Below are positions 2,218 to 18,963 of a stretch of 64,000 nucleotides of DNA, in pieces; positions within the stretch are counted from its first letter, which is position 1, and each line of letters starts with the position of its first letter. Both the position numbers and the translations under genes were made by a program. Source of the stretch: Clostridiales bacterium (GTDB lineage Bacteria > Bacillota > Clostridia > Christensenellales > CAG-138). The stretch spans positions 66,336 to 130,335 of the forward strand of contig SFIR01000001.1 in the NCBI GenBank assembly GCA_004556165.1, given 5' to 3'. The notes beneath the pieces were generated by a model, which saw nothing but the letters and a program-made list of their open reading frames with translations, was not told the DNA's origin and did no database searches.

Positions 2218-3132
2218 TTGAGCAACATCATTGAAATATCAAGCCTGAGCAAACGCTTCGGCGAAGTGCAGGCGGTAAACGATTTGAGCTTTCGTGTAAA
2301 AGAAGGTGAGCTGTTCGCCTTCCTTGGCATAAACGGAGCAGGCAAATCCACCACCATCAACATAATGTGCGGGCAGCTTTCCAAGGATTCGGGAACCGTT
2401 CAGCTAAGTGGCGTTGACCTGGACAGCGACCCGGACAGCATCAAAAGGAACCTGGGAGTGGTTTTTCAGAACTCCGTGCTGGATAAGGAACTGTCCGTGC
2501 AGGATAATCTCCAAAGCCGCGCAGCACTGTACGGTATTCGGGGAAAGGCTTTCCGGGAGCGTCTGGCCGAACTGGCAGGATTGCTGGAATTTGATGATTT
2601 GCTGAAGCGCACCGTGGGGAAGCTCTCAGGCGGTCAGCGGCGCAGGATTGACATTGCCCGAGCGCTGATACACAGACCCAAAATCCTGATTCTCGATGAG
2701 CCGACGACCGGCCTTGATCCCCAGACCAGAAGCACACTGTGGCAGGTTATCGGCGACCTGCGGAAAAACGAGGGCATGACGGTGTTCCTCACCACCCACT
2801 ACATGGAGGAGGCGGCAGACGCTGACTATGTAGTGATTCTGGACAGCGGTATGATTGCCGCCGAGGGAACACCCTTGGAACTGAAAAACACCTATACCGG
2901 CGATTTTATCACCGTTTATGGTGCTGAAGAATCGCAGATTAAGCAGCTCGGCGCGCCTTATGAGACGATTAGGGACGCATACAGGGTATCGGTTCCCAAC
3001 ACTGCCGCGGCAACAGAGCTGATTTTGAAATACCCGGATATCTTTCGGGATTACGAGATTACCAAGGGAAAGATGGATGATGTGTTCCTTGCGGTGACAG
3101 GCAAAAAGCTGATTGGAGGTGTGGGAAGATGA
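2218..3132 (+). CDS. ABC transporter ATP-binding protein (ABC-2/DrrA-like subfamily)
   Basis: Walker A GINGAGKST, signature LSGGQRRR, Walker B ILILDEPTTGLD. TTG start 7 nt after AGGAGGG. Confidence 0.9.
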   Translation: MSNIIEISSLSKRFGEVQAVNDLSFRVKEGELFAFLGINGAGKSTTINIMCGQLSKDSGTVQLSGVDLDSDPDSIKRNLGVVFQNSVLDKELSVQDNLQSRAALYGIRGKAFRERLAELAGLLEFDDLLKRTVGKLSGGQRRRIDIARALIHRPKILILDEPTTGLDPQTRSTLWQVIGDLRKNEGMTVFLTTHYMEEAADADYVVILDSGMIAAEGTPLELKNTYTGDFITVYGAEESQIKQLGAPYETIRDAYRVSVPNTAAATELILKYPDIFRDYEITKGKMDDVFLAVTGKKLIGGVGR

Positions 3133-4031
3133 CAGGACTTGGCGCGCTGATACGGCGCAACACGAAGCTCTACTTCAAGGACAAGGGGATGTTCTTCACC
3201 TCACTCATCACTCCTTTAATCCTGCTGGTGCTGTACGGTACCTTTTTAAGCAACGTATATGAGGAAACCTTCCGAGGCGCTCTTGAAGCGGCGGGAGCCA
3301 CGGTATCCGACAAGCTGATCGGCGGCTGCGTGGGCGGAGAGTTGGTATCCTCTCTGCTGGCGGTGAGCTGTGTAACGGTTGCCTTCTGTTCAAATCTGCT
3401 GATGGTGCAGGATAAGATTACCGGAGCTCGGCAAGATCTGACAATCGCACCGGTTCGCCCCGGTACGCTGGCGCTTGGCTACTATCTGTCCACGCTTCTA
3501 TCCACCCTGCTGATCTGCTTTGCGGCAACGGGTGTCTGCCTGGGGTATCTGGCTTATGTCGGTTGGTATCTGACCGCCGGGGATGCGGCAGCACTGCTGC
3601 TGGATGTGGTGCTGCTTGTGCTTTTCGGCACAGCGCTTTCCTCCTGCGTCAATTTCTTCCTGTCAACCAACGGGCAGGCCTCCGCAGTCGGCACCATTGT
3701 CAGCGCCGGGTACGGCTTTATCTGCGGAGCCTATATGCCGATCTCCCAATTCTCGGAGGGGCTGCAGAAGGTTATCTCCTTCCTGCCCGGTACCTACGGT
3801 ACTTCTCTGCTGCGCAACCATGCGCTGCGCGGAGTGTTTGAAGAAATGGGCGCGCAGGGCTTCCCGAGCGAGGCAGTAGAGGCGATCAAAGATAGTGTGG
3901 ACTGCAATTTGTATTTCTTTGGCAGCAAGGTGGAACTCCCCACCATGTACCTGGTGCTGATTGCGGGTATCGTGACCTTTGCCGGTCTGTATGTGCTGAT
4001 GAATATACTGTCCGGAAGGAAACGGGCATGA
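3129..4031 (+). CDS. ABC-2 type transporter permease
   Basis: ATGA overlap with the upstream ATPase gene. About 6 hydrophobic segments, ABC-2 permease-like layout. Confidence 0.8.
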   Translation: MTGLGALIRRNTKLYFKDKGMFFTSLITPLILLVLYGTFLSNVYEETFRGALEAAGATVSDKLIGGCVGGELVSSLLAVSCVTVAFCSNLLMVQDKITGARQDLTIAPVRPGTLALGYYLSTLLSTLLICFAATGVCLGYLAYVGWYLTAGDAAALLLDVVLLVLFGTALSSCVNFFLSTNGQASAVGTIVSAGYGFICGAYMPISQFSEGLQKVISFLPGTYGTSLLRNHALRGVFEEMGAQGFPSEAVEAIKDSVDCNLYFFGSKVELPTMYLVLIAGIVTFAGLYVLMNILSGRKRA

Positions 4032-4433
4032 AGAGAAAGTGGACGATCATTGGGCTTTGCGCCGCTGCATTGGTATTGCTTCTTGCTGTGGTATTCCTGC
4101 CAAGGATTTTGCCGTCCAACGGATCCCCGGTACAGCCGAAAAGTGGAAGAGGACTTTTTCTCTCTGGATATGGAGAGGCTGAACTGCACCATTGAGGAAC
4201 CCTTTTCTCTGAAAAAGGGTGATTCCGTTGATGTCAGTATAGTCCGTGTTTTGGGTGAGCTGACCATTTCCATCGGCCAGAAAGGATTTGAACCCATCTA
4301 TGAGGGCAGGAATCCGGAACTGAGCTCTTTTCGGGTTACAATTTCGGAGAACGGAGACTATTATCTTTCTGTATCCAGAAAGCAGGCAGAAGGAAGTATC
4401 TCCTTTCAAATCGACCGTTCGGAGAATAAATGA
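4028..4433 (+). pseudogene. small N-terminally anchored/exported protein, split by a frameshift at an A4 run
   Basis: The ATG at 4028 overlaps the permease stop (ATGA) and encodes MKRKWTIIGLCAAALVLLLAVVFLP..., stopping at 4193-4195 (55 aa). The rest of the protein (..KVEEDFFSLDMERLN.. to 4433) continues in the +1 frame from about 4139-4142 (AAAA). Confidence 0.55.
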
Positions 4434-4576
4434 TGCATCCGCCGTGTGAGGGAACGCCCTTATACGGTGGATTTTCACACCTATAAAACGGACACAATCA
4501 ACTTAATAATCCACCTATAGGAAAAATGGATTATCATGTCGAATTAAGTATATAAGCTGAAGAGGAGGCTGAGAGA

Positions 4577-5260
4577 ATGAAAATACTTGTTTTTAACGGA
4601 AGCCCTAAGAAGGAAGAGAGCGATACGCTCCACATCACCCGCGCATTTCTGGAGGGAATGGAGCAAACGGAGCCGCAGGAGGTCAGTATGATCCATGTCA
4701 TAGATCAGCATATTGAGTTCTGCTCCGGCTGCCTTTCCTGTATGCGAAACGGCGGTGTGTGCCGCCATAATGACGATATGCGCTTTATTCTGGAGCAGAT
4801 TCTTGCCGGCGATCTTCTGCTGTTCAGCTTTCCGCTTTACTGCTATGGAATGCCTGCCATGCTGAAAAACCTGATTGACAGAACTCTTCCATTGTCAAGC
4901 ATGGCGATGCAGAAGGTCGGTGACCGCTACGAGCATGTAGGTCAGGCGGATTTCTCCCACCTGAAATATCTGATGATCTGCGGCTGCGGATTTCCCAACA
5001 GCACGCATAATTTTGAACCCGCTGTGGCGCAGTTTAAGCTGATGTTCCCAAGCAGCCACACCATCATTACCGTTCCGGAAAGCCCCATGTTCAATGCGCC
5101 GGAGGCGGCAGCCGTTACCGTACCGAGACTGGAGCTTGTCAAAACCGCAGGAAAACAATATGCCGAATGCGGTGAGATCAACGCGGAATTACTGGCTGAG
5201 ATTTGCTCGCCGATGATTCCGGAGGAAGTCTATGCGCAGATAGTCAACGGCGAAGCATGA
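4577..5260 (+). CDS. flavodoxin-like fold NAD(P)H-dependent FMN reductase family protein
   Basis: MKILVFNGSPKKEESDT..CSGCLSCMRNGGVC..DDM..LLLFSFPLYCYGMPAMLKNLIDR is the typical pattern of this family. GAGGAGG RBS. Confidence 0.75.
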   Translation: MKILVFNGSPKKEESDTLHITRAFLEGMEQTEPQEVSMIHVIDQHIEFCSGCLSCMRNGGVCRHNDDMRFILEQILAGDLLLFSFPLYCYGMPAMLKNLIDRTLPLSSMAMQKVGDRYEHVGQADFSHLKYLMICGCGFPNSTHNFEPAVAQFKLMFPSSHTIITVPESPMFNAPEAAAVTVPRLELVKTAGKQYAECGEINAELLAEICSPMIPEEVYAQIVNGEA

Positions 5261-5301
5261 CAACGGAGCAAGAATGAGGCATCGCTGTACAGGTTGACGC
5301 A

Positions 5302-5820
5302 ATGAAAAAGATTCTTATCTCCAATCACAAACTGAATACCGCAGATGTCATTACAATGTTTCGCATTGCAGGAACAATACTGCTTGCGTTTTTGCGTCCG
5401 CTTTCGGCAGGTTTCCTCTCGGTCTATACTCTTACAGGGCTGACCGACGTGTTGGACGGATGGGTTGCGCGGAGGACAAAAACTGCCGGCGATTTCGGCG
5501 CAAAGCTGGACAGTATTGCAGATTTGTTGTTTTTCGCGGTGATGCTGATTCGGCTTTTTCCCGTCTTGCTGAAAGTGCTATCGGTACAGATTTGGTATGC
5601 GGTGGCTGGGATTCTCATTCTTCGCCTGATTGCGTATTGCGTGGCAGCAATCAAGTACCGCCGATTCGCTCCTCTGCACACATGGCTGAATAAGCTGACC
5701 GGTGGGGCAGTTTTTCTCCTGCCGTACATGATTCATCTTTCACGGGAAAGCTATGATGGAAATACAAAGTCAATCCTTCAGAATAGAATTGAACGAAGGA
5801 GTTTAAGGAGGATAAAATGA
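5302..5820 (+). CDS. CDP-alcohol phosphatidyltransferase family protein
   Basis: The motif DVLDGWVARRTKTAGDFGAKLDSIADLL matches D-x2-DG-x2-AR-x8-G-x3-D-x3-D. Multiple TM segments. Confidence 0.8.
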   Translation: MKKILISNHKLNTADVITMFRIAGTILLAFLRPLSAGFLSVYTLTGLTDVLDGWVARRTKTAGDFGAKLDSIADLLFFAVMLIRLFPVLLKVLSVQIWYAVAGILILRLIAYCVAAIKYRRFAPLHTWLNKLTGGAVFLLPYMIHLSRESYDGNTKSILQNRIERRSLRRIK

Positions 5821-6452
5821 TCTGTACATTCAACGAATCCATCCAAATCGAGGGCAGCCGTGCGTTTATCCGTATTCCGTTCAACGTATGGGAGGAAACC
5901 GGCTTAAAAGGGAATATCCCATGCCGTGTGACCATCGAAATCTACACCTTTGAATGCAAGCTCATACCCAAAGGAAACGGGAACTATCTGATTCCAATTC
6001 CGAAAAAAATCATGTCCCACCTTTCTGCGGAGGAATCATACAATGTTTTATTCGAACCCATTAGAACACTATCGCGGATCAATCATGACAGCCCCTATTC
6101 CGTGGAACATCCTATTCGAAGAATAGACGGGATCGAGGCAATACCCATACAGGCCGGCCTCTGTGGCCACTGCTGTGTTGCTATGCTGGCTGGGGTTCCT
6201 CTGGACGATGTGGTAGCTCTGATGGGAAAAGCCCATGCCTCTTGGTCTAAAGTATTGGAGGCATTGGATTATTTCGGGATTTCCTATTCAGCGAAAGCAG
6301 TTTATCCCAAAGGCAGTTCGTACCGATTGCCGACCTGCTGCATTGTTAATAACGATAACCGTTTTCTGCTTTGGTATCAGAGTTCCTTCTGCGGTGCAGC
6401 AGATGTGGATCCGAAGAAGACCATCAGCTATATTGAAGTCTACGTCGGCTGA
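5817..6452 (+). CDS. DUF1905-like N-terminal domain fused to a C39/papain-like Cys-peptidase-like domain
   Basis: The N-terminus (AFIRIPFNVWEETGLKGNIPCRVTIEIYTFECKLIPKGNGNYLIPIPKKI) resembles DUF1905. The C-terminal half (IQAGLCGHCCVAMLAGVPLDDV) resembles the Q..CG..C..M active-site stretch of C39-like peptidases. Confidence 0.45.
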   Translation: MICTFNESIQIEGSRAFIRIPFNVWEETGLKGNIPCRVTIEIYTFECKLIPKGNGNYLIPIPKKIMSHLSAEESYNVLFEPIRTLSRINHDSPYSVEHPIRRIDGIEAIPIQAGLCGHCCVAMLAGVPLDDVVALMGKAHASWSKVLEALDYFGISYSAKAVYPKGSSYRLPTCCIVNNDNRFLLWYQSSFCGAADVDPKKTISYIEVYVG

Positions 6453-6543
6453 AAACGTGAATTATCGGGCAGTCACGATAAAATGACTCTCTTGCAAAAA
6501 CGGACAGCGTAACCAACACAAAGGAGAAAGACTAACCGAGATC

Positions 6544-6882
6544 ATGGAATTCATCAAGCTGACACACGAGAATTTAGAGCGTGAGCATATCTGCTGCGCC
6601 ATCTCCAACAGCAAAGATGTGCAGGTCGTGTCAAAAAAGGCATGGCTGTCGGCTCGTCTGGATGAAGGACTTGTATTTCTCAAAGGGGACGTCCGAGGGA
6701 AATGCTTTATCGAATATATCACGGCGGAGTACGCCTGGGCACCCATTGACGCAGAAGGCTGCATGTTCATCGACTGTTTATGAGTCTCGGGGCAGTTCAT
6801 TTGGTTATTACAGTTGTCAGCAGATCGCCGCATTGTGAACCCGCAAATTAGTATTCCACAACGGGAGTTTCGAGATGATTAG
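6544..6882 (+). pseudogene. GNAT/YoaP-like N-acetyltransferase remnant (in-frame TGA, 3' truncated)
   Basis: The N-terminus (EHICCAISNSKD..KKAWLSARLDEGLVFLKGDVRGKCFIEYITAEYAWAPIDAEGCMFIDC) looks like that of the YoaP-like GNAT family. A TGA at 6781-6783 sits where the family has Trp, and VSGQF follows in frame. Similarity is then lost, with a second stop at 6880-6882. Confidence 0.5.
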
Positions 6883-7059
6883 CAACCGAACCGGTTGTGT
6901 AGGAATAGCGGTGTTTCCAGATGATGTTTCCTTAGGAAAGCAGGTGCAGAGAACCGTTCAACCAAGCTCAAAGCTGACTGAGCGAGCCTCTCAAGCTCAG
7001 ATTGCAGCATTCGGCTGTGCGTTGTGCAATACTTTTTTCGTTTGCATTACAATATTTAT

Positions 7060-7482
7060 TTAATGTCTTATTGTCGGAAAAGCATTTAATCCATTTTTAT
7101 ATACTGCACTCCGTAGCCATATGATGATTGCAGTATTGGGAACAGATGCAAACACTGCATAGAATAATGATAGATTTACATCGAAGAAAGCAACTATAAT
7201 GTACCCAATAAGTATTGAAATACAAAACAGCAGATAGAACATATATATCATTCTGTATCTGCGAAATAGCTTCCGATTCTTTTCTTTAACGCGTGAAATC
7301 AAATATGACATATTTGCAATTTCAATCAAATTTCCCTTATGCTTCAGTTCTTTGTGCCTTGCTTTGAATTCAGCGCGCCTCAATTTACCGAATGCAATGT
7401 ACCTAAGAACCCTACGCAGGCTTTCGATTATAATCACATCACCCGTCAAAAGCAATAGAATGCCTATCAGCAATTCTTTCAT
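7060..7482 (-). CDS. hypothetical membrane protein (140 aa)
   Basis: ORF with a GAGGT RBS. Three hydrophobic segments separated by a Lys/Arg-rich loop. AT-rich composition. Confidence 0.55.
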   Translation of the reverse strand: MKELLIGILLLLTGDVIIIESLRRVLRYIAFGKLRRAEFKARHKELKHKGNLIEIANMSYLISRVKEKNRKLFRRYRMIYMFYLLFCISILIGYIIVAFFDVNLSLFYAVFASVPNTAIIIWLRSAVYKNGLNAFPTIRH

Positions 7483-7678
7483 GGGTTGACCTCAAACAAC
7501 ATTGCTTTCACTCACTAAAAATTCGATTTGATAACGGAAACAGCAGATCCATATACGGAGAACATATTAAATTCTCCGGGGTGCTCACTGTTCTTTCCTA
7601 CTCATCGTAGGTGGAATAATACGCCGTGATGCCGCAGGATATGCTGTTGAGCATGCCGCTGAAATCGCGGCCATATGC

Positions 7679-8284
7679 TCAATGCTGGGGTTCATTTGTA
7701 GAACAGGGGAGTATATATGTGTAAGCATACCATCCGTCCGATAAATCCTCATAACCGTACTTGCTGACCATATCGGTCATATCGCCTTTAGTAAAAAACA
7801 ACTCCAATCGGTCAAACTCGCCCTTATCAATCTCGCTTGGGTATATCCCGGAGAAGAACACTCCCATACTACCGGTATGCTCTTCCGTGATCCCATGCAT
7901 CCAAATAACCATTTCAGGGAACTTATTGCGCAGAAGGTCTATTGCCTCTTTTGCCGAATCGCTAATTGCGAATTGTTCTCCGTCAGTTTGCCCCTCCTCG
8001 CTAAACCCCAAAAAAGTGTTGCTGCCATCACCATAGTAATCGTAATAATAAAACTTGAACGGCTTTTCCTCAGTAATGCTAAGACTTTCCTCTGCAATAA
8101 CATTGAATAATTCCCGGATGCCATCGTCGGACTTGAAAACATCCACAAATAATTCGTGTTCATAAGTGGGTGATGGTGTTTCCGCACTGTTAGAGTTTAA
8201 GTTTTCACTGTTACCGTTTCCGGCCGTACATGCAGACAACAGCATCGTAAAGATAAGCAAGAAAAACAATATTAGTTTTTTCAT
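7679..8284 (-). CDS. hypothetical lipoprotein
   Basis: The internal ATG at 8284 is preceded by GGGAGA. Signal peptide with lipobox MKKLILFFLLIFTMLLSAC. The track ORF extends to 8362 only because the upstream frame is open. Confidence 0.6.
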   Translation of the reverse strand: MKKLILFFLLIFTMLLSACTAGNGNSENLNSNSAETPSPTYEHELFVDVFKSDDGIRELFNVIAEESLSITEEKPFKFYYYDYYGDGSNTFLGFSEEGQTDGEQFAISDSAKEAIDLLRNKFPEMVIWMHGITEEHTGSMGVFFSGIYPSEIDKGEFDRLELFFTKGDMTDMVSKYGYEDLSDGWYAYTYILPCSTNEPQH

Positions 8285-8365
8285 AAATCGTTTCTCCCTT
8301 CGCATTTTGATTATGGATATACTTGCTACCGCCGCCCTCAACGCAGGCGATAACCCCTGCAATAA

Positions 8366-9049: not shown

Positions 9050-9081
9050 TTGACTCTCCCCTTAAGGGGAGATGATACAAT
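9050..9081 (+). promoter_or_regulatory. MerR-type promoter: TTGACT, 19-20 bp spacer containing the perfect palindrome CTCCCCTTAAGGGGAG, then TACAAT
   Basis: -35 at 9050-9055, palindrome at 9056-9071, -10 at 9076-9081. A MerR regulator is encoded downstream in the same operon. Confidence 0.6.
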
Positions 9082-9116
9082 CCAACTTGTTAAGAAAAGC
9101 AAGGAGGATTTTTACT

Positions 9117-9842
9117 ATGAACGAACCGGCTGTCAGCGTGAGAAACCTGACAAAATCGTTTTCAGGCCGCAGGGTTGTGGATGATTTGTCCTTCGATGTA
9201 CAAAAGGGCGAGGTCTTTGCCATGCTTGGGCACAACGGGACAGGCAAAAGCACCACAATAGATTTGATTCTGGGCTTGAAGGCACCTGAAAGAGGCTCCG
9301 CGAAGATTTTGGGAATGGACGCAGCAAAAAACAGAAAACAGGTGTTTGAGCGGGTTGGAGTTCAGCTTCAGAATACCCGGTATCAGCTCAACATCACCGT
9401 GGAGGAAGCATGCATAGAGTACGCCTCTTTATATGCCGACCCGGCAAACTATCCGAAGCTTCTGGAGCGATTCGGACTTGGTACACTAAGAAAGAGCTTC
9501 GTATCAAAGCTATCGGGAGGTGAAAGGCAGAAGCTTTCCGTTGTTCTGGCACTTATCGGCAGCCCTGAGATAGTCTTTCTGGACGAGCTGACAACAGGAT
9601 TGGATGTGGCGGCAAGGCGTGAGGTATGGAGAACCCTGAAGCAGCTTAAGGATCGGGGGCTTACAATCTTCCTGACCACCCATTACATGGAAGAGGCGGA
9701 AGCCCTCTGCGATCGGGTGTGTATCATCAAGTCAGGAAAGAAGGCTGCGGAAGGAACCATAGATGAGGTCATCTCGGCTTCGGGTCAAAAGAATCTGGAG
9801 GACGCATATCTGTTCTTTATGGGAGAGGAGGAATTGTTATGA
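9117..9842 (+). CDS. ABC transporter ATP-binding protein (ABC-2/DrrA-like)
   Basis: Walker A GHNGTGKST, signature LSGGERQKL, Walker B IVFLDELTTGLD. The ATG at 9117 lies 9 nt after AAGGAGG. The track start at 9072 lies inside the promoter. Confidence 0.9.
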   Translation: MNEPAVSVRNLTKSFSGRRVVDDLSFDVQKGEVFAMLGHNGTGKSTTIDLILGLKAPERGSAKILGMDAAKNRKQVFERVGVQLQNTRYQLNITVEEACIEYASLYADPANYPKLLERFGLGTLRKSFVSKLSGGERQKLSVVLALIGSPEIVFLDELTTGLDVAARREVWRTLKQLKDRGLTIFLTTHYMEEAEALCDRVCIIKSGKKAAEGTIDEVISASGQKNLEDAYLFFMGEEELL

Positions 9843-10576
9843 AGAGATTTTGGAAAATGTATCGGGTGGAGCAGAAGATATTCTTCAGAACCCCGGATGT
9901 GATTCTGTTTTGTCTGGCAATGCCGCTGGTGGTATTTGTTGTTATTACGATGATTACAGGAGGGAAAAATGCCGCTGATTCGGGTCTAACCTATCTGCAA
10001 AGCTCGTATGTGTCGCTGTCAACCGTGGGAATCTGCTGCAGCGCGTTCATGAGCATCCCCATCACCGTAGTTGAGCTGCGATCTCAGGGAATCCTGCGGC
10101 GGATGTACTGCAGTCCCTGTTCTCCGGCAAGGCTTCTTGCCTGCGATACCATATGCAGTGGTGTGGTCGCAGCTCTTTCAACACTGATTCTGACTATTGC
10201 AGCGGTGGTCTTCTTCGGCTACCGGATGCAGGGCAATGTGTTTGCGTACATAGCCGTGTGGCTGCTGACCATGATTTCCATGTTCTCCATCGGCCTCATG
10301 GCGGCGAGTTTATGCCGAACCACAAAATCAATGAATGTGGTCACGAGCCTGCTCTATTTTCCTATGCTGCTGTTCTCAGGGGCAACAATTCCTGCGGAAG
10401 TATTTCCGGGTGCTCTCCGTACATTTGCCGGGTGGATGCCCCTTGGAGTGGGAATCAGGCTGTTGAAATCGGTGTCCATTGGGTGTTATGATAATATCGT
10501 CATACCGATGGTCACACTGATCGCGATTACGGTCATTTGCGGCACCGTCGCCGTCAAAACATTCAGATGGGAGTAA
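9839..10576 (+). CDS. ABC-2 type transporter permease (DrrB-like)
   Basis: ATGA overlap with the ATPase gene. Six hydrophobic segments. Confidence 0.8.
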   Translation: MKRFWKMYRVEQKIFFRTPDVILFCLAMPLVVFVVITMITGGKNAADSGLTYLQSSYVSLSTVGICCSAFMSIPITVVELRSQGILRRMYCSPCSPARLLACDTICSGVVAALSTLILTIAAVVFFGYRMQGNVFAYIAVWLLTMISMFSIGLMAASLCRTTKSMNVVTSLLYFPMLLFSGATIPAEVFPGALRTFAGWMPLGVGIRLLKSVSIGCYDNIVIPMVTLIAITVICGTVAVKTFRWE

Positions 10577-10580
10577 GACT

Positions 10581-11435
10581 ATGGAAATGAAGCAAGAACA
10601 CAAGCCCTGCGAAGTCAAGACAAGCGATACACTCTATAAGATCGGCATGTTCGCGGCGATGAATCATGTTACCGTCAAAACCCTGCGCTTCTATGAGGAG
10701 CAGGGACTGCTGATACCGGCACTGATTCATCCTGATACCGGGTATCGGTATTATACACTCTCCCAGATGGCGGTGCTTCACCAGATCACCGCCTTGAAGC
10801 TGGCAGGATTCAAATTGGAGGAGATTGCCAACATCAATTCCGGGGCAGATGAGATAGCGGTACTGCTGAAGAAAAAGGCGGAGCTGCTTGAAAAGATCGC
10901 AGATATTACAAGACAGATTGCCGTTGTGGACGGTTATCTGGCCAAAAAGAAAACCGGGCTTTCTTCGCCCGTTCTGATAAAAACCATTCCCGAAACCACC
11001 GTGGCATTTATGCGTATCAGGCTTGAATCCTATGACTGCCTGTTTGACCGGATGCCGGAGATGGGCGCGCTGATGGAGAAAGCGGGCTGTGAATGCGCCC
11101 TTCCGGAATATTGCTTTACCGCCTATCCGGAACCGGGATACAAGGACGGGGATATCCCGGTTGAGATTTGTGAGTCCGTTGTGGAGGCAAAAAAGGAGAT
11201 CGGAGATCTGAAGTTCAAAACCATGCCCGAGATTCAGGCGGCCTGCGTTTTTCACAAGGGCTCCTACCGTACATTTTCGGAATCCTACGAAACCGTGCTG
11301 CGGTATATCGAGGAAAACGGGTGTGAGATCGCCGGAGAGATCCGTGAAAGCTATATCGACGGGGTTTGGAACAAGGATGATGAGAGCAGGTGGCTGTCGG
11401 AAATACAGGTGCCTGTCAGGAGAAAGACGGAATAA
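10581..11435 (+). CDS. MerR family transcriptional regulator with C-terminal GyrI-like effector-binding domain (BmrR-like)
   Basis: The N-terminal HTH is YKIGMFAAMNHVTVKTLRFYEEQGLL..GYRYY, followed by a coiled-coil linker. The C-terminal ~150 aa resemble the GyrI-like/AraC_E_bind fold (..AACVFHKGSYRTFSESYETVLRYIEENG..). Confidence 0.85.
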   Translation: MEMKQEHKPCEVKTSDTLYKIGMFAAMNHVTVKTLRFYEEQGLLIPALIHPDTGYRYYTLSQMAVLHQITALKLAGFKLEEIANINSGADEIAVLLKKKAELLEKIADITRQIAVVDGYLAKKKTGLSSPVLIKTIPETTVAFMRIRLESYDCLFDRMPEMGALMEKAGCECALPEYCFTAYPEPGYKDGDIPVEICESVVEAKKEIGDLKFKTMPEIQAACVFHKGSYRTFSESYETVLRYIEENGCEIAGEIRESYIDGVWNKDDESRWLSEIQVPVRRKTE

Positions 11436-11471
11436 TTTATCCGGTAAAGAAGAAAGCGAGGCGGTTTTGTG

Positions 11472-13718
11472 ATGAACCAAGATAAAATTGTAATTCGTGG
11501 GCTTAGGCAAAACAATCTGAAAAATGTCTCTTTGGATATTCCAAAAGGTAAAATAGTGGTCTTTACCGGCGTCTCCGGCTCCGGGAAGTCCAGCATCGTC
11601 TTTGATACCATCGCCGCAGAAAGCCAACGGCAGATGAACGAGACCTATACAGCGTTCATGCGTGGGCGGCTGCCCAAGTACGAAAAGCCAAAGGTGGAGC
11701 TCATTGACAACCTCTCCGCTTCGGTCATTGTTGACCAGTCACGGCTGGGCGGAAACGCTCGCTCCACCGTGGGCACCATCAGCGATATGTACGCCGCCCT
11801 GCGGCTTCTCTATGCTCGCATCGGAACGCCCTATGTGGGGACGGCATCATATTTTTCATTCAACGACCCCAACGGCATGTGCAAGACCTGCTCCGGTATC
11901 GGAAAAATTCTGGATTTGGATATAGAAAGGGCCATAGACCCGGATAAATCATGGAACGAAGGTATGCTTGGTCTGCCTGCGTTCGGCGTGGGAAACTACT
12001 ACTGGAAGCAGTACACAGGCTCGGGTCTGTTCGACTTGGATAAAAAGTATCGGGACTACACTCCGGAAGAGCGGAATCTTCTGCTATTCGGCAGCAGGGA
12101 ACCGGGCGGACCCCGGGCGCATAAGAGGGTCGAGGGCATCAAAACACAGTTTCAGCGTCTGTGCCTCATGAAAGGTCCCGAGGAGCAGAACGATTACACG
12201 CTGCGCAAGCTCAATCAGTTTATGGAGGAGAAGACCTGTCCGGTTTGCAACGGGCGGAGGCTGAATGATAAGAGCCTTTCCTGCAAGGTGGCAGGATACG
12301 GCATCGACGAGATGTGCGCCATGGAATTTACCGAGCTGGTTAAGGTTTTGCGCACCATTGACGACCCCAGAGCCATAACCATAGTGGATGCCCTGACCGC
12401 TTCGCTGAACCGAATGATAGAAATCGGACTTCCGTATCTTTCCATGGATAGGGAATCAAGCACACTCTCCGGCGGCGAAGCCCAGCGGTTAAAACTTGTG
12501 CGGTACATGGGAAGCTCCCTCACCGGCATGACATACATCTTCGATGAGCCCAGCACAGGCATGCACCCACGGGATGTGTACCGCATGACAAGGCTTTTGC
12601 GGAGCCTGCGGGATAAGGGGAATACGGTGCTTGTGGTGGAGCACGACAAGGACGTGATTTCAATCGCCGACGAGGTCATAGACGTCGGCCCTCTGGCTGG
12701 AAAGAACGGCGGCGAGATTTTGTTTCAGGGTAGCTATGGAGACCTGCTGCGCTCCGGTACCCGTACCGGAAATGCGCTGAAGAATAATACCCCACTGAAA
12801 GCCGCGCCCCGCACGCCGCAGGACTTTTTACCGGTGCGAAACGCCTGCGTCCACAATCTGAAAAACGTGTCTGCGGACATACCGCTGAATGTACTGACGG
12901 TGGTCACCGGCGTGGCAGGCTCAGGAAAAAGCTCTCTCATCCGTGACGTATTCGCCAAGCAGTATGCCGACCGTGTAGTGCTGGTCGATCAGTCCCCGGT
13001 GACAGCCACAGGCAGGTCAACTCCAGCAACCTTTTTGGGCTTCTTTGATGAGATCCGCAAGGTCATGGCAGCGGAGAACGGTGTGGATGCCTCTTTGTTT
13101 TCCTTCAACAGCAAGGGGGCTTGTCCTGTCTGCTCGGGCAGGGGACAGATTGTAACGGAGCTGGTTTTCATGGATCCGGTTACAACCGTCTGCGAAGCCT
13201 GCGAGGGCAAGCGGTACAGCGAAGAGGCTCTGTCCTACCGTTATCACGGAAAGAATATCGTGGAGATTCTGGATATGTCCGCCGGGGAAGCCTACGAGTT
13301 TTTCAAGGAGAACAAAAAACTTCGCAAGGCTCTGGGAGCAATGCTGGAGGTGGGCTTGCCTTATCTTTCACTGGGACAGCCCCTGTCTACCCTGTCCGGA
13401 GGCGAGCGCCAAAGGGTGAAACTGGCGAAGTATCTGGACAAGAAGGGTAATATCTATGTGCTGGATGAGCCCACCACGGGCCTGCACGCTTCCGATGTTC
13501 AGAAGGTCATGGAGCTGCTGGACGGTCTGGTGGCTAGCTGCAACACGGTCATTGTCATCGAGCACAATCTGGATGTGATGAAACAGGCGGACTGGCTCAT
13601 TGATGTTGGCCCCGATGGCGGCACCGCCGGAGGAGAAATCGTATTTGCCGGTACCCCGAAGGAAATGGCAGATCGCGGCAGCACAATCACATCGGAATAT
13701 CTCAGAAAATCGCTGTGA
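11472..13718 (+). CDS. UvrA-like ABC ATPase, short paralogue lacking the UvrB-binding domain (DrrC/UvrA2-like)
   Basis: Two Walker A motifs (GVSGSGKSS, GVAGSGKSS) and two signatures (LSGGEAQRLKL, LSGGERQRVKL). Zn modules CKTCSGIG, CPVCNGRR, CPVCSGRG and CEACEGKR. ARIGTPYVG runs directly into FSFNDPNGMC. 748-749 aa (GTG at 11469 is an alternative start). Confidence 0.85.
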   Translation: MNQDKIVIRGLRQNNLKNVSLDIPKGKIVVFTGVSGSGKSSIVFDTIAAESQRQMNETYTAFMRGRLPKYEKPKVELIDNLSASVIVDQSRLGGNARSTVGTISDMYAALRLLYARIGTPYVGTASYFSFNDPNGMCKTCSGIGKILDLDIERAIDPDKSWNEGMLGLPAFGVGNYYWKQYTGSGLFDLDKKYRDYTPEERNLLLFGSREPGGPRAHKRVEGIKTQFQRLCLMKGPEEQNDYTLRKLNQFMEEKTCPVCNGRRLNDKSLSCKVAGYGIDEMCAMEFTELVKVLRTIDDPRAITIVDALTASLNRMIEIGLPYLSMDRESSTLSGGEAQRLKLVRYMGSSLTGMTYIFDEPSTGMHPRDVYRMTRLLRSLRDKGNTVLVVEHDKDVISIADEVIDVGPLAGKNGGEILFQGSYGDLLRSGTRTGNALKNNTPLKAAPRTPQDFLPVRNACVHNLKNVSADIPLNVLTVVTGVAGSGKSSLIRDVFAKQYADRVVLVDQSPVTATGRSTPATFLGFFDEIRKVMAAENGVDASLFSFNSKGACPVCSGRGQIVTELVFMDPVTTVCEACEGKRYSEEALSYRYHGKNIVEILDMSAGEAYEFFKENKKLRKALGAMLEVGLPYLSLGQPLSTLSGGERQRVKLAKYLDKKGNIYVLDEPTTGLHASDVQKVMELLDGLVASCNTVIVIEHNLDVMKQADWLIDVGPDGGTAGGEIVFAGTPKEMADRGSTITSEYLRKSL

Positions 13719-13750
13719 GAAATGCGATAGAAGCAAACGGAGGAAATCTA

Positions 13751-13999
13751 ATGCGTGAAATTCAATTGAAAAGGGTTTATCGTCATTTCAAGGGCGATTA
13801 TTATCTGGTTGAGGATCTTGCTCATGATTCGGAAACAGGAGAATTGTATGTTGTTTACAGAAAGCTGTATGGTGACGGCGGCCTATGGATTCGACCGCTG
13901 TCCATGTTCATGAGCAAAGTTGACAAAGAAAAATATCCGAATTCGCCGCAGGAATACCGCTTTGAATTGCAGGAAATTTCAAGCAAGGCAGGCCATTGA
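13751..13999 (+). CDS. DUF1653 domain protein
   Basis: YRHFKGDYYLVEDLAHDSETGELYVVYRKLYGDGGLWIRPLSMF is the DUF1653 pattern. GGAGGA RBS before the ATG at 13751. Confidence 0.7.
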   Translation: MREIQLKRVYRHFKGDYYLVEDLAHDSETGELYVVYRKLYGDGGLWIRPLSMFMSKVDKEKYPNSPQEYRFELQEISSKAGH

Positions 14000-15032: not shown

Positions 15033-15169
15033 GCCATGTCCTCCAAAGGTATGTTGAATTTCTTATTTGTTCGCTAAGATTTCCGACAACGGACGGGGCT
15101 GGTGACCGCAATCCTCCACCATAAGCAAAGCACGGCGATTATTTTATTCCAAATAAAATCGTTTGTCAA
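15033..15169 (-). promoter_or_regulatory. rplM promoter (TTGACA-17-TAAAAT) plus ~100-nt leader (possible L13-type ribosomal leader)
   Basis: On the minus strand, the -35 is at 15169-15164 and the -10 at 15146-15141. The leader identity is not verifiable by eye. Confidence 0.45.
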
Positions 15170-15248: not shown

Positions 15249-15277
15249 TTGACAAATTCGGACACTTGTGTTAAAAT
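15249..15277 (+). promoter_or_regulatory. sigma-A type promoter TTGACA-17-TAAAAT with TG extension
   Basis: -35 at 15249-15254, TGt plus TAAAAT at 15272-15277, about 55 nt upstream of the ATG at 15335. Confidence 0.6.
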
Positions 15278-15334
15278 GAGTAGGTACGGCGCGGAAAAAG
15301 ATAAGATCCTGCCGCAACAGGGGGAAAACAGAAT

Positions 15335-16228
15335 ATGGAAAAAAAACAAAAAGGCGAGAAAAGACGCCGCGGAGACCGCAGGGATGCGTATCTTATTCGC
15401 GAGCTTGATTCCATGCACAAATTCATGCCGTTTCTTCTGCCGAACAGATGCGATAACGAAGCGTGCATGAGCGAGCTTGTAGAGCTGTCCGCGATCAATG
15501 AGTATGTAAAAAAGCTCAATGCGGATAACCCGGAATTCAGATACACGCTATTCCATGTGATTTGCGCAGCTATCGTCAAGACCATCGCTCTCAGACCGAA
15601 GCTCAACTGGTTCATCTCCGGTTACAGATACTATGAGCGCAAAGAGATAAGCATCTCATTTGTCGTTAAGAAGACCTTTGAGGACGAAGCAAGGGAAGCC
15701 CTTGCGATCCTAAAGATCGACAGGGACGGAGAGAATCCCATCAAGCAGATCCACGATAAGACCGAAAAGTTTGTGACGGCTGTTCGAAAGCATGACGAGC
15801 AGGACAGCACGACCGATATCATGGATATCCTCGTTAAACTCCCAAGATGGCTGCTTAAGCTCGTTACGGGCATCATCAATAAGCTCGATAACCGCGGTAA
15901 GCTCCCAAAGAGCATGACCGAAAGCGATCCATACTGTTCGAGCGTCTTTGTATCAAACCTTGGCAGCATCAAAATGCATGCGAGCTATCATCATCTGACG
16001 AATTACGGAAACAATTCTTTATTTGCCATTATTGATGAAAAACATTTACATCCGTTCTTCGATGAAAATGGTAACTGCGAAATGCGTGAAGCGCTGCGCC
16101 TCGGCTTGACTGTTGACGAGCGAATTGCGGACGGAACGTATTTTGCCAAGAGCGTAAGGCTCATGAAGAAACTGCTTGAGAATCCCGAACTTCTCGAGCA
16201 GCCTATCAACACACCCGTAGAGCTTTGA
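15335..16228 (+). CDS. 2-oxoacid dehydrogenase E2-type (CAT-fold) acyltransferase catalytic domain protein, no lipoyl domain
   Basis: The C-terminal ..LRLGLTVDERIADGTYFAKSVRLMKKLLENPELL aligns to the E2 catalytic ..DHRxxDG..F....LE.P motif. Only 297 aa, with a basic N-terminus. Confidence 0.65.
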   Translation: MEKKQKGEKRRRGDRRDAYLIRELDSMHKFMPFLLPNRCDNEACMSELVELSAINEYVKKLNADNPEFRYTLFHVICAAIVKTIALRPKLNWFISGYRYYERKEISISFVVKKTFEDEAREALAILKIDRDGENPIKQIHDKTEKFVTAVRKHDEQDSTTDIMDILVKLPRWLLKLVTGIINKLDNRGKLPKSMTESDPYCSSVFVSNLGSIKMHASYHHLTNYGNNSLFAIIDEKHLHPFFDENGNCEMREALRLGLTVDERIADGTYFAKSVRLMKKLLENPELLEQPINTPVEL

Positions 16229-16272
16229 TTTTTATCGAAAGGACGTCTTATCAGAAGACGAAATCATCAATT

Positions 16273-18003
16273 ATGGAAACGAATTTTATTAACAAGCCCG
16301 AGAAGGAAGCTCCCTGGCTCGGTCATTACGGCAATGTGCCGTTCCATCTCGATTACCCTGATTGCAGCATCGCGGATATGGTATTATCTACTGCTGAACG
16401 CGAGGGGAAATTCCCTGCATTATCCTATATGGGAAAGCTTTTCAGCTATAATACCCTAAGGGAAAAGATAGATGCCGCAGCTGCGGGCTTTGTCGCCCTC
16501 GGCATCAAAAAAGGTGATGCAGTCACCATCTGCCTGCCGAATGTGCCTCAGGCGGTCTATCTTCTGTATGCGCTTGACCGCATCGGCGCGGTCGCCAGCA
16601 TGATACATCCGCTTTCGGCGGTCACTGAGATCATATATTACCTCAAAGAGGTAGATAGCCATACGATAGTTACCCTCGACCAGTTCTATGATAAAATAGC
16701 GGAGGTCGAAAAGGAATATGAGCTTACTAATGTCCTGATCACCACGGCTGCCGAGGAGCTCGGATTTATCAAAAGCACTGCATTCAAGCTCATAAACAAA
16801 AATCATGTCGATAAGAAGGATCCTCGCCTTGTGACATGGCGTAAGTTCCTGGCAAACGGCAAAAACGTGAATCTAAACGAGCATATCGTGCATATGTCTC
16901 CGGATGAAACCGCGGTAATTCTTTTTTCCGGCGGTACAACCGGCGTCACTAAGGCGATACAGCTCAGCAGCATGAATTTCAATGCACTCGGCTTGCAGAC
17001 CGCTAATATGTGCCATGACGAGATACGTCATAAACGCATGCTTGCGGCAATGCCCGTATTCCATGGCTTCGGTCTCGGCGTCTGCATCCATACGATGCTT
17101 GAGCTCGGAGGCACGAGCATACTTGTTCCGAGGTTCAATCCGAAGTCCTATGCGGAGCTTATCAAGACCGAAAAGCCGAATTTCATCGCAGGCGTTCCGA
17201 CTCTGTTCGAGGCCATTACGAGAAATCCTTATCTTGACGGCGAAAAGCTCGATTTTCTTCGCGGCGTATTCTCAGGCGGCGATTCGCTCTCAATCGAGCT
17301 CAAGAAACGCTTTGATGCTTTCCTTGAGGAACACGGGGCTCCCGTCCATGTCCGCGAGGGCTACGGCACCACCGAATGCGTTACTGCAAGCTGCCTGACC
17401 CCGTATACAACCGAGCGCGAGGGCAGCATCGGTCTTCCTTATCCGGATACCTATTATACCATTTGCGCTGTTGGGACTAATAACCCCGTTCCGTTCGGAG
17501 AACTCGGCGAGATCTGCCTGAGGGGCCCTTCCGTTATGATAGGTTACCTCAACAGACCCGAGGAGAATGCGAATACTCTCCGCGTACATGCCGACGGCTA
17601 CACTTGGCTCCATACCGGAGATCTCGGCTATATGGATTCCGACGGCTTCATCTATTTCAAACAGCGCATCAAGAGGATGATCGTGACCAGCGGCTACAAT
17701 GTCTATCCCTCCCAGCTTGAAAATATCATTGATGCTCATGAGGCTGTACAGATGAGCTGCGTTATCGGCGTTAAGGATCCTTACAAGATTCAGAAGGTCA
17801 AAGCCTATGTCGTCTTGAAAAAGGGCTATACCTATTCGGATGAACTGAAAGAATCGATATTTGAGCATTGCAGGAAGAATATCGCAAAGTACGCAATGCC
17901 GTATGATATCGAATTCAGGGAGGAGCTTCCCAAGACCCTTGTCGGTAAGGTTGCATATACCGCCCTTGAAAAGGAAGCAAATTCCGAGCAGGGCGCAGCA
18001 TAA
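16273..18003 (+). CDS. AMP-dependent synthetase/ligase (acyl-CoA ligase family)
   Basis: AMP-binding motifs ILFSGGTTGVTKA, EGYGTTE and TGDLGYMDSDGFIYFKQRIKRMI, plus the C-terminal GKV. An alternative TTG start at 16225 overlaps the upstream stop. Confidence 0.9.
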   Translation: METNFINKPEKEAPWLGHYGNVPFHLDYPDCSIADMVLSTAEREGKFPALSYMGKLFSYNTLREKIDAAAAGFVALGIKKGDAVTICLPNVPQAVYLLYALDRIGAVASMIHPLSAVTEIIYYLKEVDSHTIVTLDQFYDKIAEVEKEYELTNVLITTAAEELGFIKSTAFKLINKNHVDKKDPRLVTWRKFLANGKNVNLNEHIVHMSPDETAVILFSGGTTGVTKAIQLSSMNFNALGLQTANMCHDEIRHKRMLAAMPVFHGFGLGVCIHTMLELGGTSILVPRFNPKSYAELIKTEKPNFIAGVPTLFEAITRNPYLDGEKLDFLRGVFSGGDSLSIELKKRFDAFLEEHGAPVHVREGYGTTECVTASCLTPYTTEREGSIGLPYPDTYYTICAVGTNNPVPFGELGEICLRGPSVMIGYLNRPEENANTLRVHADGYTWLHTGDLGYMDSDGFIYFKQRIKRMIVTSGYNVYPSQLENIIDAHEAVQMSCVIGVKDPYKIQKVKAYVVLKKGYTYSDELKESIFEHCRKNIAKYAMPYDIEFREELPKTLVGKVAYTALEKEANSEQGAA

Positions 18004-18022
18004 AAGAAATATCTTCAAACTG

Positions 18023-18046
18023 GCTGTCGTTTTCGGCAGCTTTTTT
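18023..18046 (+). terminator. rho-independent terminator after the ligase gene
   Basis: GCTGTCG-TTTT-CGGCAGC followed by TTTTTT. Confidence 0.65.
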
Positions 18047-18135
18047 GCATATCGGGATAATAATTTCCGCCAAAAGCAGCCTTTTTTTGCAGGTATGAGC
18101 ATATATTTCATTATAGAAAGCTTTTTGGAGGGAAT

Positions 18136-18495: not shown

Positions 18496-18963
18496 ATGAA
18501 ATGTAGGTATTGCCTTTCAACCGAGAGCAAGGTGATCGACTCACGTCCAACGGAGGACGGAACTGCAATCCGCCGCAGAAGGGAATGCATAAGCTGCGGA
18601 AAGCGGTTTACGACCTATGAGAAAATAGAGGAGATTCCGATAACAGTAGTAAAGCGTGACGGCACCCGGCAGGCGTTTGACAGCACCAAGATTCTTGCGG
18701 GCGTTAAGAAGGCATGCGAAAAGCGTCCCGTTTCGGTTGCTGCACAGAATGAGCTTGTTGACGATGTGACGAGGGAGATATTTAATTCCTTCGAGGAGGA
18801 AATCACCACCATCCGCATCGGTGAACTCGTTATGAAGCATCTCAAAGCGCTCGATGAGGTCGCCTACGTTCGCTTCGCATCGGTCTATCGTTCGTTTAAG
18901 GACATCAATACCTTTATGGAGGAGCTCAAAACCCTTCTCGGTGAAGCGGAATCAGGCAAATGA
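18496..18963 (+). CDS. nrdR: transcriptional repressor NrdR
   Basis: Zn ribbon MKCRYC..SKVIDSRP...RRRRECISCGKRFTTYE followed by an ATP-cone. Confidence 0.95.
   Translation: MKCRYCLSTESKVIDSRPTEDGTAIRRRRECISCGKRFTTYEKIEEIPITVVKRDGTRQAFDSTKILAGVKKACEKRPVSVAAQNELVDDVTREIFNSFEEEITTIRIGELVMKHLKALDEVAYVRFASVYRSFKDINTFMEELKTLLGEAESGK

Follow-up and report, generated by a model that had tools for sequence, protein, structure and literature searches.

A stand-alone E2-like protein with glutamate in place of the motif histidine, and its adjoining ANL-superfamily ligase, in Christensenellales and other Clostridia

The gene pair

The sequence considered here is a 64,000 nt stretch (the window) of contig SFIR01000001.1, assembly GCA_004556165.1 (nt 66336 – 130335, forward strand), from a Clostridiales bacterium of the order Christensenellales; positions within it are given in window coordinates. 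It carries two consecutive genes on the plus strand, the first encoding a 297 aa protein related to the catalytic domain of 2-oxoacid dehydrogenase E2 subunits (the E2-like protein), and the second a ligase of the ANL superfamily, probably of the acyl-CoA-synthetase type. What is new at this locus is a widespread, uncharacterised clade of a known fold, with a rearranged catalytic motif, which in the lineage of the window is coupled to an acyl-activating enzyme. A full-text literature search found no paper on the family or on the gene pair, although this does not prove their absence from the literature. The features of the locus are as follows.

nt 15249–15277, plus strand: sigma-70-type promoter-like site (TTGACA, 17-nt spacer, TG-extended TAAAAT; 11 of 12 consensus positions)
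nt 15278–15334, plus strand: leader with a small hairpin (-9.3 kcal/mol), from the sequence and a computed fold
nt 15335–16228, plus strand: E2-like gene, an open reading frame (ORF) of 297 aa, member of the xHH / D-E-R-x-x-D-G family
nt 15335–15409, plus strand: basic N-terminal arm, residues 1–25, net charge +4, with conserved R15 and D17
nt 15782–15925, plus strand: family-specific helical insert relative to E2 (about residues 150–197), from profile alignment and model helices
nt 15953–15967, plus strand: S207-N-L-G-S211, oxyanion counterpart, by alignment to T-N-I-G-S of E2p (1b5s)
nt 15989–15994, plus strand: H219-H220 pair, candidate relocated catalytic base, by family conservation
nt 16115–16135, plus strand: D261-E-R-I-A-D-G267 in the place of DHRxxDG (GAC GAG CGA ATT GCG GAC GGA)
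nt 16229–16272, plus strand: intergenic spacer, if the ligase starts at ATG 16273 (from the sequence)
nt 16273–18003, plus strand: ANL-superfamily ligase, acyl-CoA-synthetase type (576 aa from ATG 16273, 592 aa from TTG 16225)
nt 18022–18047, plus strand: intrinsic-terminator-like hairpin (18022–18041; 8 bp, five of them G-C) and T-run

Neither gene is a chance ORF; for the E2-like protein over 4000 homologues are found, the best at an E-value of 1e-197. A Shine-Dalgarno sequence, GGGGGA (nt 15320–15325), lies 9 nt 5' of its ATG at 15335. The promoter is a predicted site, called by its match to the consensus; together with the terminator-like hairpin it agrees with the original prediction, made from this DNA alone, which had placed a promoter at 15249–15277 and a terminator at about 18023–18046. 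No Rfam family matched the leader or the intergenic spacer. The start of the ligase is ambiguous, as gene callers working on identical metagenome contigs have picked both candidates. TTG 16225, the mechanical ORF start, overlaps the stop of the E2-like gene as TTGA, and the equally possible ATG 16273 lies 44 nt past that stop; a 6-bp hairpin (nt 16244–16260, -5.9 kcal/mol) separates the two. The earlier statement that the ligase overlaps or abuts the E2-like stop is therefore correct for the TTG start but not for the ATG. Pig-gut metagenome assemblies are among the contigs that encode an identical E2-like protein.

Domains and fold of the E2-like protein

Pfam recognises a single domain in the E2-like protein, PF00198 (residues 194–287, E = 9e-11, 42 bits versus a cut-off of 23), and detects neither a lipoyl nor an E3-binding/peripheral-subunit-binding domain anywhere in the 297 aa; homologues are of similar size (280–320 aa). 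Against the NCBIfam E2 equivalogs it scores about 25 bits, where the cut-offs exceed 400. An AlphaFold2 model of the monomer, built with 36 homologues, has a mean pLDDT (predicted local distance difference test) of 83 and a pTM (predicted template modelling score) of 0.85. A Foldseek search of the PDB with this model gave E2 catalytic cores as all of its top matches (3mae, 1b5s, 1eaa, 1c4t and others), over the whole fold and with E-values of about 1e-13 at 12–16% identity. Judged by this model, the 297 aa protein is a stand-alone E2-fold protein, similar to chloramphenicol acetyltransferase (CAT). The model and the Pfam result bear out the original description of a CAT-fold protein devoid of lipoyl and E1/E3-binding domains.

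A HMMER search of 1.84 billion cluster representatives returned 1707 clusters at E ≤1e-3 and 912 at ≤1e-10. Conservation values given below refer, unless stated otherwise, to 116 near-full-length representatives of 50%-identity clusters, which are 27–51% identical to the protein of the window. The E2p core of B. stearothermophilus (1b5s) can be aligned to a profile of 81 diverse members of the family, in two blocks that cover both halves. Profile positions 145–190 are skipped in this alignment, which shows that some 40 residues of the family have no counterpart in the E2p core; in the model this extra segment is helical. The insert holds a conserved amphipathic helix, LPRWLLKLVTGIINKLD, between P170 and P191 (98% and 93% conserved), the hydrophobic moment of which is 0.60–0.63 in the window protein and 0.51 in the family median. 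The N-terminus is basic, as had been noted originally, and the charge of the first 25 residues is also positive across the family (median +3). Clade profiles of the family align to each other with 100% probability over 299 columns (hhalign). The window protein has every conserved family position, i.e. the H219-H220 pair, the acidic residue 262, the insert from P170 to P191, the R15/D17 arm and a length of about 290 aa; its closest named relatives come from metagenome-assembled genomes (MAGs) of Christensenellaceae and Clostridia.

A conserved active-site-like region without the motif histidine

In both phmmer and profile alignments to E2 proteins of solved structure, E262 falls on the catalytic His of the DH[KR]xxDG motif, and the segment D261-E-R-I-A-D-G267 pairs with D-H-R-M-I-D-G of E2. 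The codons at nt 16115–16135 read exactly as first reported, and the Glu is not an isolated variant. From 475 near-full-length family proteins that were collected, 464 have a recognisable motif, and none of these has His at the position in question (E 447, D 12, N 3, Q 1, S 1). The closest homologues (≥54% identity) read DERI[A/G/S]DG in 120 of 120 cases. Across the more distant cluster representatives position 262 is E in 81% and D in 11% (E or D 92%), and rarely N, Q or S.

The oxyanion motif is conserved as well (N208 89%, G210 87%, S211 94%). The most conserved residue of the family is H219 (99%), followed by G267 (98%), P170 (98%), R263 (97%), N91, D261 (96%), H220 (94%) and S211 (94%). 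In the 81-sequence alignment only H219, D261, R263 and G267 are invariant, and some family members have Asn for H220. Inspection of the variants at position 262 alongside those at H220 revealed no clear pattern of covariation.

The H219-H220 pair lies 12–13 residues past the oxyanion Ser, where it aligns to the 'TP' of FTPV in E2p, or of (F)TP(V/I) in E2s, and this location, beyond a retained oxyanion motif, makes a relocated catalytic base plausible. In E2 trimers, as in E2p of A. vinelandii, the segment with the oxyanion Ser lies opposite the His motif of the adjacent subunit, so that a His on the H219 loop could plausibly reach the old catalytic centre. Three features are additions to the original prediction: the His pair, the helical insert and the membrane-protein links described below.

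The ligase

The second protein matches PF00501 (240 bits) and PF13193 (69 bits) and has the ANL motifs A3, A5, A7, A8 and A10 at residues 219, 364, 447, 463 and 553 (SGGTTGVTKA, YGTTE, HTGDL, the hinge KQRIKRMI, and PKTLVGK with the A10 Lys). The nearest solved structure is FadD-1 of A. fulgidus (PDB 3g7s, E = 7e-54). In the alignment to this protein the FAAL-type insertion is absent, and the A5–A7 spacing is 83 residues. The top NCBIfam matches are long-chain-fatty-acid-CoA ligases, the best being NF004114 (355 bits versus a cut-off of 766). The ANL motifs, the lack of a FAAL-type insertion relative to FadD-1 and these family matches suggest an enzyme of the acyl-CoA-synthetase type, for which a fatty acid is the default guess as acid substrate.

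Pairing of the two genes

A scan of one genome per GTDB species found relatives of the E2-like protein in at least 592 species, mostly Clostridia (Christensenellales, Oscillospiraceae, Lachnospiraceae), along with some Bacteroidales and a Spirochaetia MAG. The best 80 of these species (46–61% identity to the window protein) supplied the loci of what is here called the window clade. An orthologue of the ligase (50–68% identity) is found directly downstream and on the same strand in 69 of the 80, and the two genes mostly abut or overlap (median projected gap about -3 nt). Among the 11 loci without the ligase, two (L051 and L077) have downstream sequence that is too short for a firm call; the downstream genes of ligase-less loci are mutually unrelated (HD domain, aminotransferase, SUKH, unknowns). 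Paired loci span Clostridia and Bacteroidales, and the same gene order is found in a separately fetched Bacilli lineage. A third conserved partner was not found, as no other neighbour occurs in more than about 6 of the 80 loci. Regulator genes upstream are MarR-type in 5 loci and TetR-type in 3; BirA, transporters and others are sporadic. With the ligase adjoining in 69 of 80 loci and every other neighbour confined to a few, the pair is inherited together in the window clade, as a self-contained module that occurs in more than one phylum.

Pairing with a ligase was also considered as a family-wide trait, and was ruled out. The family splits into at least three large groups. In group 6 (DERICDG/YHHI) none of 80 metagenome loci has an ANL ligase within 6 kb, and the E2-like gene is typically monocistronic among varied housekeeping genes. 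In group 2 (FHHL) the ligase is missing from all five loci, which come from three species and encode proteins 58–84% identical to P0178, the search query for that clade. The pairing is therefore clade-specific, and the co-occurrence expected from the original prediction holds in the window clade but not in the two other large clades. The absence of the ligase from these clades indicates that the transferase-like protein is ancestral and autonomous, and that the ligase was recruited in one clade. No association with E1 or E3 genes was seen across 80 + 80 + 15 loci; conservation among the neighbours is confined to the ligase, GtrA and DUF5317. The E2-like family occurs also in bioreactor and other non-gut metagenomes. 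Two further proteins, P0236 and P0189, in which the E2-like domain follows OTCase or PRTase N-termini, were set aside as likely gene-calling or assembly chimeras because only the C-terminal half of the domain is present.

Links to membrane proteins

Protein P0126, which is 46% identical to the window protein, has a GtrA/DPMS-type transmembrane domain (PF04138) fused to its N-terminus. A search with P0126 found at least 26 clusters (90% identity) of such GtrA fusion proteins, about 500 aa long, in Bacilli MAGs, and in these genomes the ligase starts 2 nt after the fusion gene. In sister genomes a separate GtrA gene overlaps the start of a gene for a 303 aa E2-like protein, which is followed by the ligase. 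The loci are:

L165 7001–8503, L166 4606–6108 and L169 7001–8503: GtrA-E2-like fusion genes, Bacilli-MAG lineage
L167 6526–7912 and L168 1796–3182: separate GtrA gene overlapping the E2-like start, sister genomes
L171, L172 and L174, about 2900–8300: conserved block of the FHHL clade

At locus L036, from a Christensenellaceae MAG, a GtrA gene lies between the E2-like gene and the ligase, and its product is homologous to the GtrA of the Bacilli fusion lineage (E = 7e-28). GtrA-family modules are partners or anchors of enzymes acting on polyprenyl-phosphate sugars, and are found fused to or paired with polyprenyl-phosphate glycosyltransferases; we know of no description of such a module attached to a CAT-fold enzyme.

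The FHHL clade has a different membrane neighbour. Its five loci (L171, L172, L173, L174, L175) share the order TraX-family membrane acyltransferase, leuS, DUF5317 and E2-like gene, with DUF1858 after the E2-like gene in three of them. The DUF5317 product is a polytopic membrane protein whose gene ends 13–95 nt before the E2-like gene. Given the GtrA fusions and insertions and the DUF5317 neighbour, a membrane-resident acceptor is the most economical reading. Together with the amphipathic helix, the occurrence of GtrA in two lineages and of DUF5317 in another clade indicates that the acceptor is probably membrane-bound, such as a lipid, a glycolipid or a polyprenyl-phosphate-linked sugar.

Some further genes near these loci may be recorded. 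In the Bacilli-MAG lineage a formate/nitrite-transporter-family gene and an alpha/beta hydrolase gene lie downstream of the ligase, and in L167 a SASA-type esterase gene stands between them and the ligase; an esterase and a hydrolase could be a sign of O-acyl turnover. A gene of the TMEM164 family, to which a human lipid acyltransferase belongs, lies no more than about 2 kb from the E2-like gene in loci of two clades (L167 4369–5178; L172 9272–10054), which may be coincidence.

Surroundings in the window

The gene pair is flanked upstream by the divergent housekeeping genes rplM and rpsI, which form a separate transcription unit. A second promoter-like site (nt 15141–15169, minus strand; 11 of 12 consensus positions) points towards rplM-rpsI, and with the two sites opposed, the 300-nt intergenic region looks like a divergent promoter pair. 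Downstream lie other transcription units, comprising a PRC-barrel gene, nrdR, a Cu-oxidase_4/YfiH-type gene and the spoIIIA operon. The nrdR gene (nt 18496–18963) is about 0.5 kb from the pair; nrdR also directly follows group 6 E2-like genes, on the opposite strand, in L148 (2271–2780) and in three or four other loci.

Further upstream (nt 9072–13999) the window carries genes for an ABC ATPase, an ABC-2 permease, a MerR/GyrI-like regulator and a 749 aa UvrA-like double-ABC protein, followed by a small DUF1653 gene. The UvrA-like protein is shorter than canonical UvrA; the domains of all these proteins were assigned from the matching contig L163. The arrangement resembles a drug-response or resistance-type cluster.

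Proposed function

In the preferred reading, to which a probability of about one half is given, the pair would be a bicistronic module by which an acyl group is activated and then transferred to a membrane-associated acceptor via a rearranged E2/CAT site. The ANL ligase would first adenylate a carboxylic acid and convert it to the acyl-CoA; to judge from the family membership of the ligase, the acid is most likely a fatty acid of medium or long chain length. The E2-fold protein would then move the acyl group from CoA onto a nucleophile of the acceptor. The active site would be an E2/CAT site that has been rearranged, with the S/T-N-x-G-S and D-x-R-x-x-D-G scaffold retained and Glu262 in place of His. 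His219, with His220, would serve as the base, and Glu262 would orient or polarise His219. The ligase would be an add-on of one clade, other family members presumably drawing on an existing acyl-thioester pool. The two-step logic had already been put forward in the original prediction; both the transfer itself and its donor, acyl-CoA or acyl-AMP, are putative.

Several points weigh against this proposal. Family membership does not define the acid substrate, as the ligase falls below the cut-off of every NCBIfam equivalog. The loop with H219 and H220 (residues 211–220) is the single poorly modelled part of the E2-like protein (pLDDT <50). The E2-like protein may use acyl-AMP directly, and the two clades that lack the ligase, group 6 and group 2, imply that the donor could be acyl-ACP (acyl carrier protein) or another thioester. 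The link to GtrA is limited to two lineages (one of the 80 genome loci, and one Bacilli lineage), and no GtrA homologue was found in the whole window.

A more specific version can be offered tentatively, as one that is more doubtful than the general proposal. The family would then be a class of membrane-associated acyltransferases, common among anaerobes of gut, rumen and digesters, in which the catalytic His has moved to the H219 loop, leaving a carboxylate at the old site. The window clade would use fatty acids activated by the ligase for the O-acylation of a glycolipid of the membrane, or of a polyprenyl-phosphate-linked sugar that GtrA-type proteins handle. If this is true, an acylated lipid or glycan of the envelope would result, the biosynthetic enzyme of which has so far not been recognised.

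Comparison with known systems

The E2-like protein shares with the E2 catalytic domain (PF00198; 1b5s, 1eaa, 3mae) its fold, the oxyanion motif, the D-x-R-x-x-D-G frame and a C-terminal NPExL tail. It differs in having Glu for the catalytic His, His-His at the (F)TP(V/I) position and the helical, amphipathic insert of some 40 residues. Sequence identity is only 12–16%. Lacking lipoyl and subunit-binding domains as well as the catalytic His, and with neither E1 nor E3 genes beside its own, the protein is not an E2 subunit. The E3-binding protein (E3BP, protein X) of eukaryotic pyruvate dehydrogenase complexes is likewise an E2 paralogue with the catalytic His replaced. E3BP is non-catalytic, sits within the E2 core and keeps its lipoyl and binding domains, whereas the E2-like protein stands alone, has a strongly constrained former active site and has gained an invariant His.

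A CAT-type fold is common to the E2-like protein and to CAT, the condensation domains of nonribosomal peptide synthetases (NRPS), PapA5 and WS/DGAT. CAT and the HHxxxDG acyltransferases use acyl-thioester donors and, to our knowledge, CAT, condensation domains, PapA5 and WS/DGAT all employ the HHxxxDG His as base. In mycobacteria, HHxxxDG transferases act after an adenylating enzyme of the FadD type, and activation precedes transfer as it would in the pair. Most HHxxxDG acyltransferases depend on carrier-protein-bound donors or belong to large polyketide synthase/NRPS clusters; the pair, in contrast, is a minimal module of two genes that includes no carrier protein, and its E2-like member has no His in the motif. 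The ligase has PF00501, PF13193, the ANL core motifs and the A5–A7 spacing in common with FadD-type acyl-CoA synthetases (3g7s), but falls short of all NCBIfam equivalog cut-offs and forms an orthologous group of its own (50–68% identity across paired loci). GtrA/DPMS proteins (PF04138) are fused to or located beside the E2-like protein in some lineages, while the operon of the window has none.

Alternative explanations

Five other explanations were ranked by plausibility, beginning with transfer to a soluble acceptor, followed by a thiol transacylase, a different chemistry, a dead scaffold and a genuine E2 subunit.

The pair could act on a soluble small molecule, as CAT acts on chloramphenicol. 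With the acyl-CoA from the ligase, the E2-fold enzyme would esterify or amidate a partner (a xenobiotic, a bile acid, an amine or a toxic free fatty acid) as part of detoxification or signalling. This is considered unlikely. The fold belongs to the CAT superfamily, MarR-type and TetR-type regulator genes are found upstream (5 and 3 loci, respectively), the family is concentrated in gut and rumen anaerobes, and O-acylated bile acids are known from Christensenella, for which a review names no enzyme (PMC13602198). However, the association with GtrA and DUF5317 and the conserved amphipathic helix indicate the membrane, the occurrence of the family in bioreactors and other non-gut habitats counts against a host-specific acceptor such as bile acids, and a direct link to any metabolite is missing. 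Production of the 3-O-acyl bile acids of Christensenella by the pair was considered as well and given up as unsupported, since bioreactor and other non-gut metagenomes also contain the family.

It is rather improbable that the E2-like protein is an acyl-CoA:carrier-thiol transacylase which has ACP phosphopantetheine as its partner instead of lipoyl-lysine, and which feeds exogenous fatty acids into phospholipid synthesis. E2 enzymes catalyse thioester exchange between CoA and a protein-tethered thiol, so that thiol-to-thiol transfer would be native chemistry for this fold. The conserved basic N-terminus could complement an acidic ACP, members are found in housekeeping neighbourhoods, and a strong general base is less necessary with a thiol acceptor, which would fit the loss of His. 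On the other hand, the invariant His pair suggests that a base is still required, the GtrA fusion is left without explanation, and no ACP gene or gene of fatty-acid or phospholipid synthesis is conserved beside the family in about 170 loci.

Two further explanations are both very improbable, and equally so. In the first, the His-His and Asp-Glu cluster is a metal or water-activating site, for example of an acyl-CoA/acyl-ester hydrolase or a lyase. H219, H220, D261 and E262 are invariant or nearly so and are potential ligands, similar to a 2-His/carboxylate site, and the canonical catalytic His is missing; but two transferase elements, the oxyanion motif and the D-x-R-x-x-D-G scaffold, are kept, a hydrolase acting after a CoA ligase would constitute a futile cycle, and some members have Asn in place of H220. 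In the second, the E2-like protein is a catalytically dead relic of E2, serving as an E3BP-like scaffold or as an acyl-binding partner of the ligase. The base used by every active E2/CAT enzyme is missing, and E3BP provides a precedent for a His-less E2 paralogue. Against this, the residues lining the former active site are near-invariant over at least 116 clusters at ≤50% identity, a new invariant His is present, two large clades have no ligase for which to act as a scaffold, and there are no E1/E2/E3 partners.

That the protein is the E2 subunit of a 2-oxoacid dehydrogenase complex, as annotated automatically in public sources ('2-oxo acid dehydrogenase subunit E2') on a PF00198 match above the gathering score, is already contradicted and can hardly be maintained, given a protein with no lipoyl domain, subunit-binding domain or catalytic His, an NCBIfam score of 25 versus 429 bits and no conserved E1/E3 gene nearby in about 170 loci.

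Implications

Thousands of proteins of this family are labelled in databases as 2-oxo acid dehydrogenase E2 subunits, which is wrong for organisms that have no such complexes. A conserved catalytic His is a textbook feature of the E2/CAT/condensation superfamily, and a His-less clade of more than 1000 sequence clusters under strong constraint would show a catalytic residue moving within a fixed fold. The ligase-coupled clade is common in gut and rumen Clostridia. We know of no obvious use for long-chain acyl-CoA in these organisms, and the pair may therefore mark an unrecognised fatty-acid route, serving either to exploit or neutralise fatty acids of host and dietary origin or to decorate the cell envelope.

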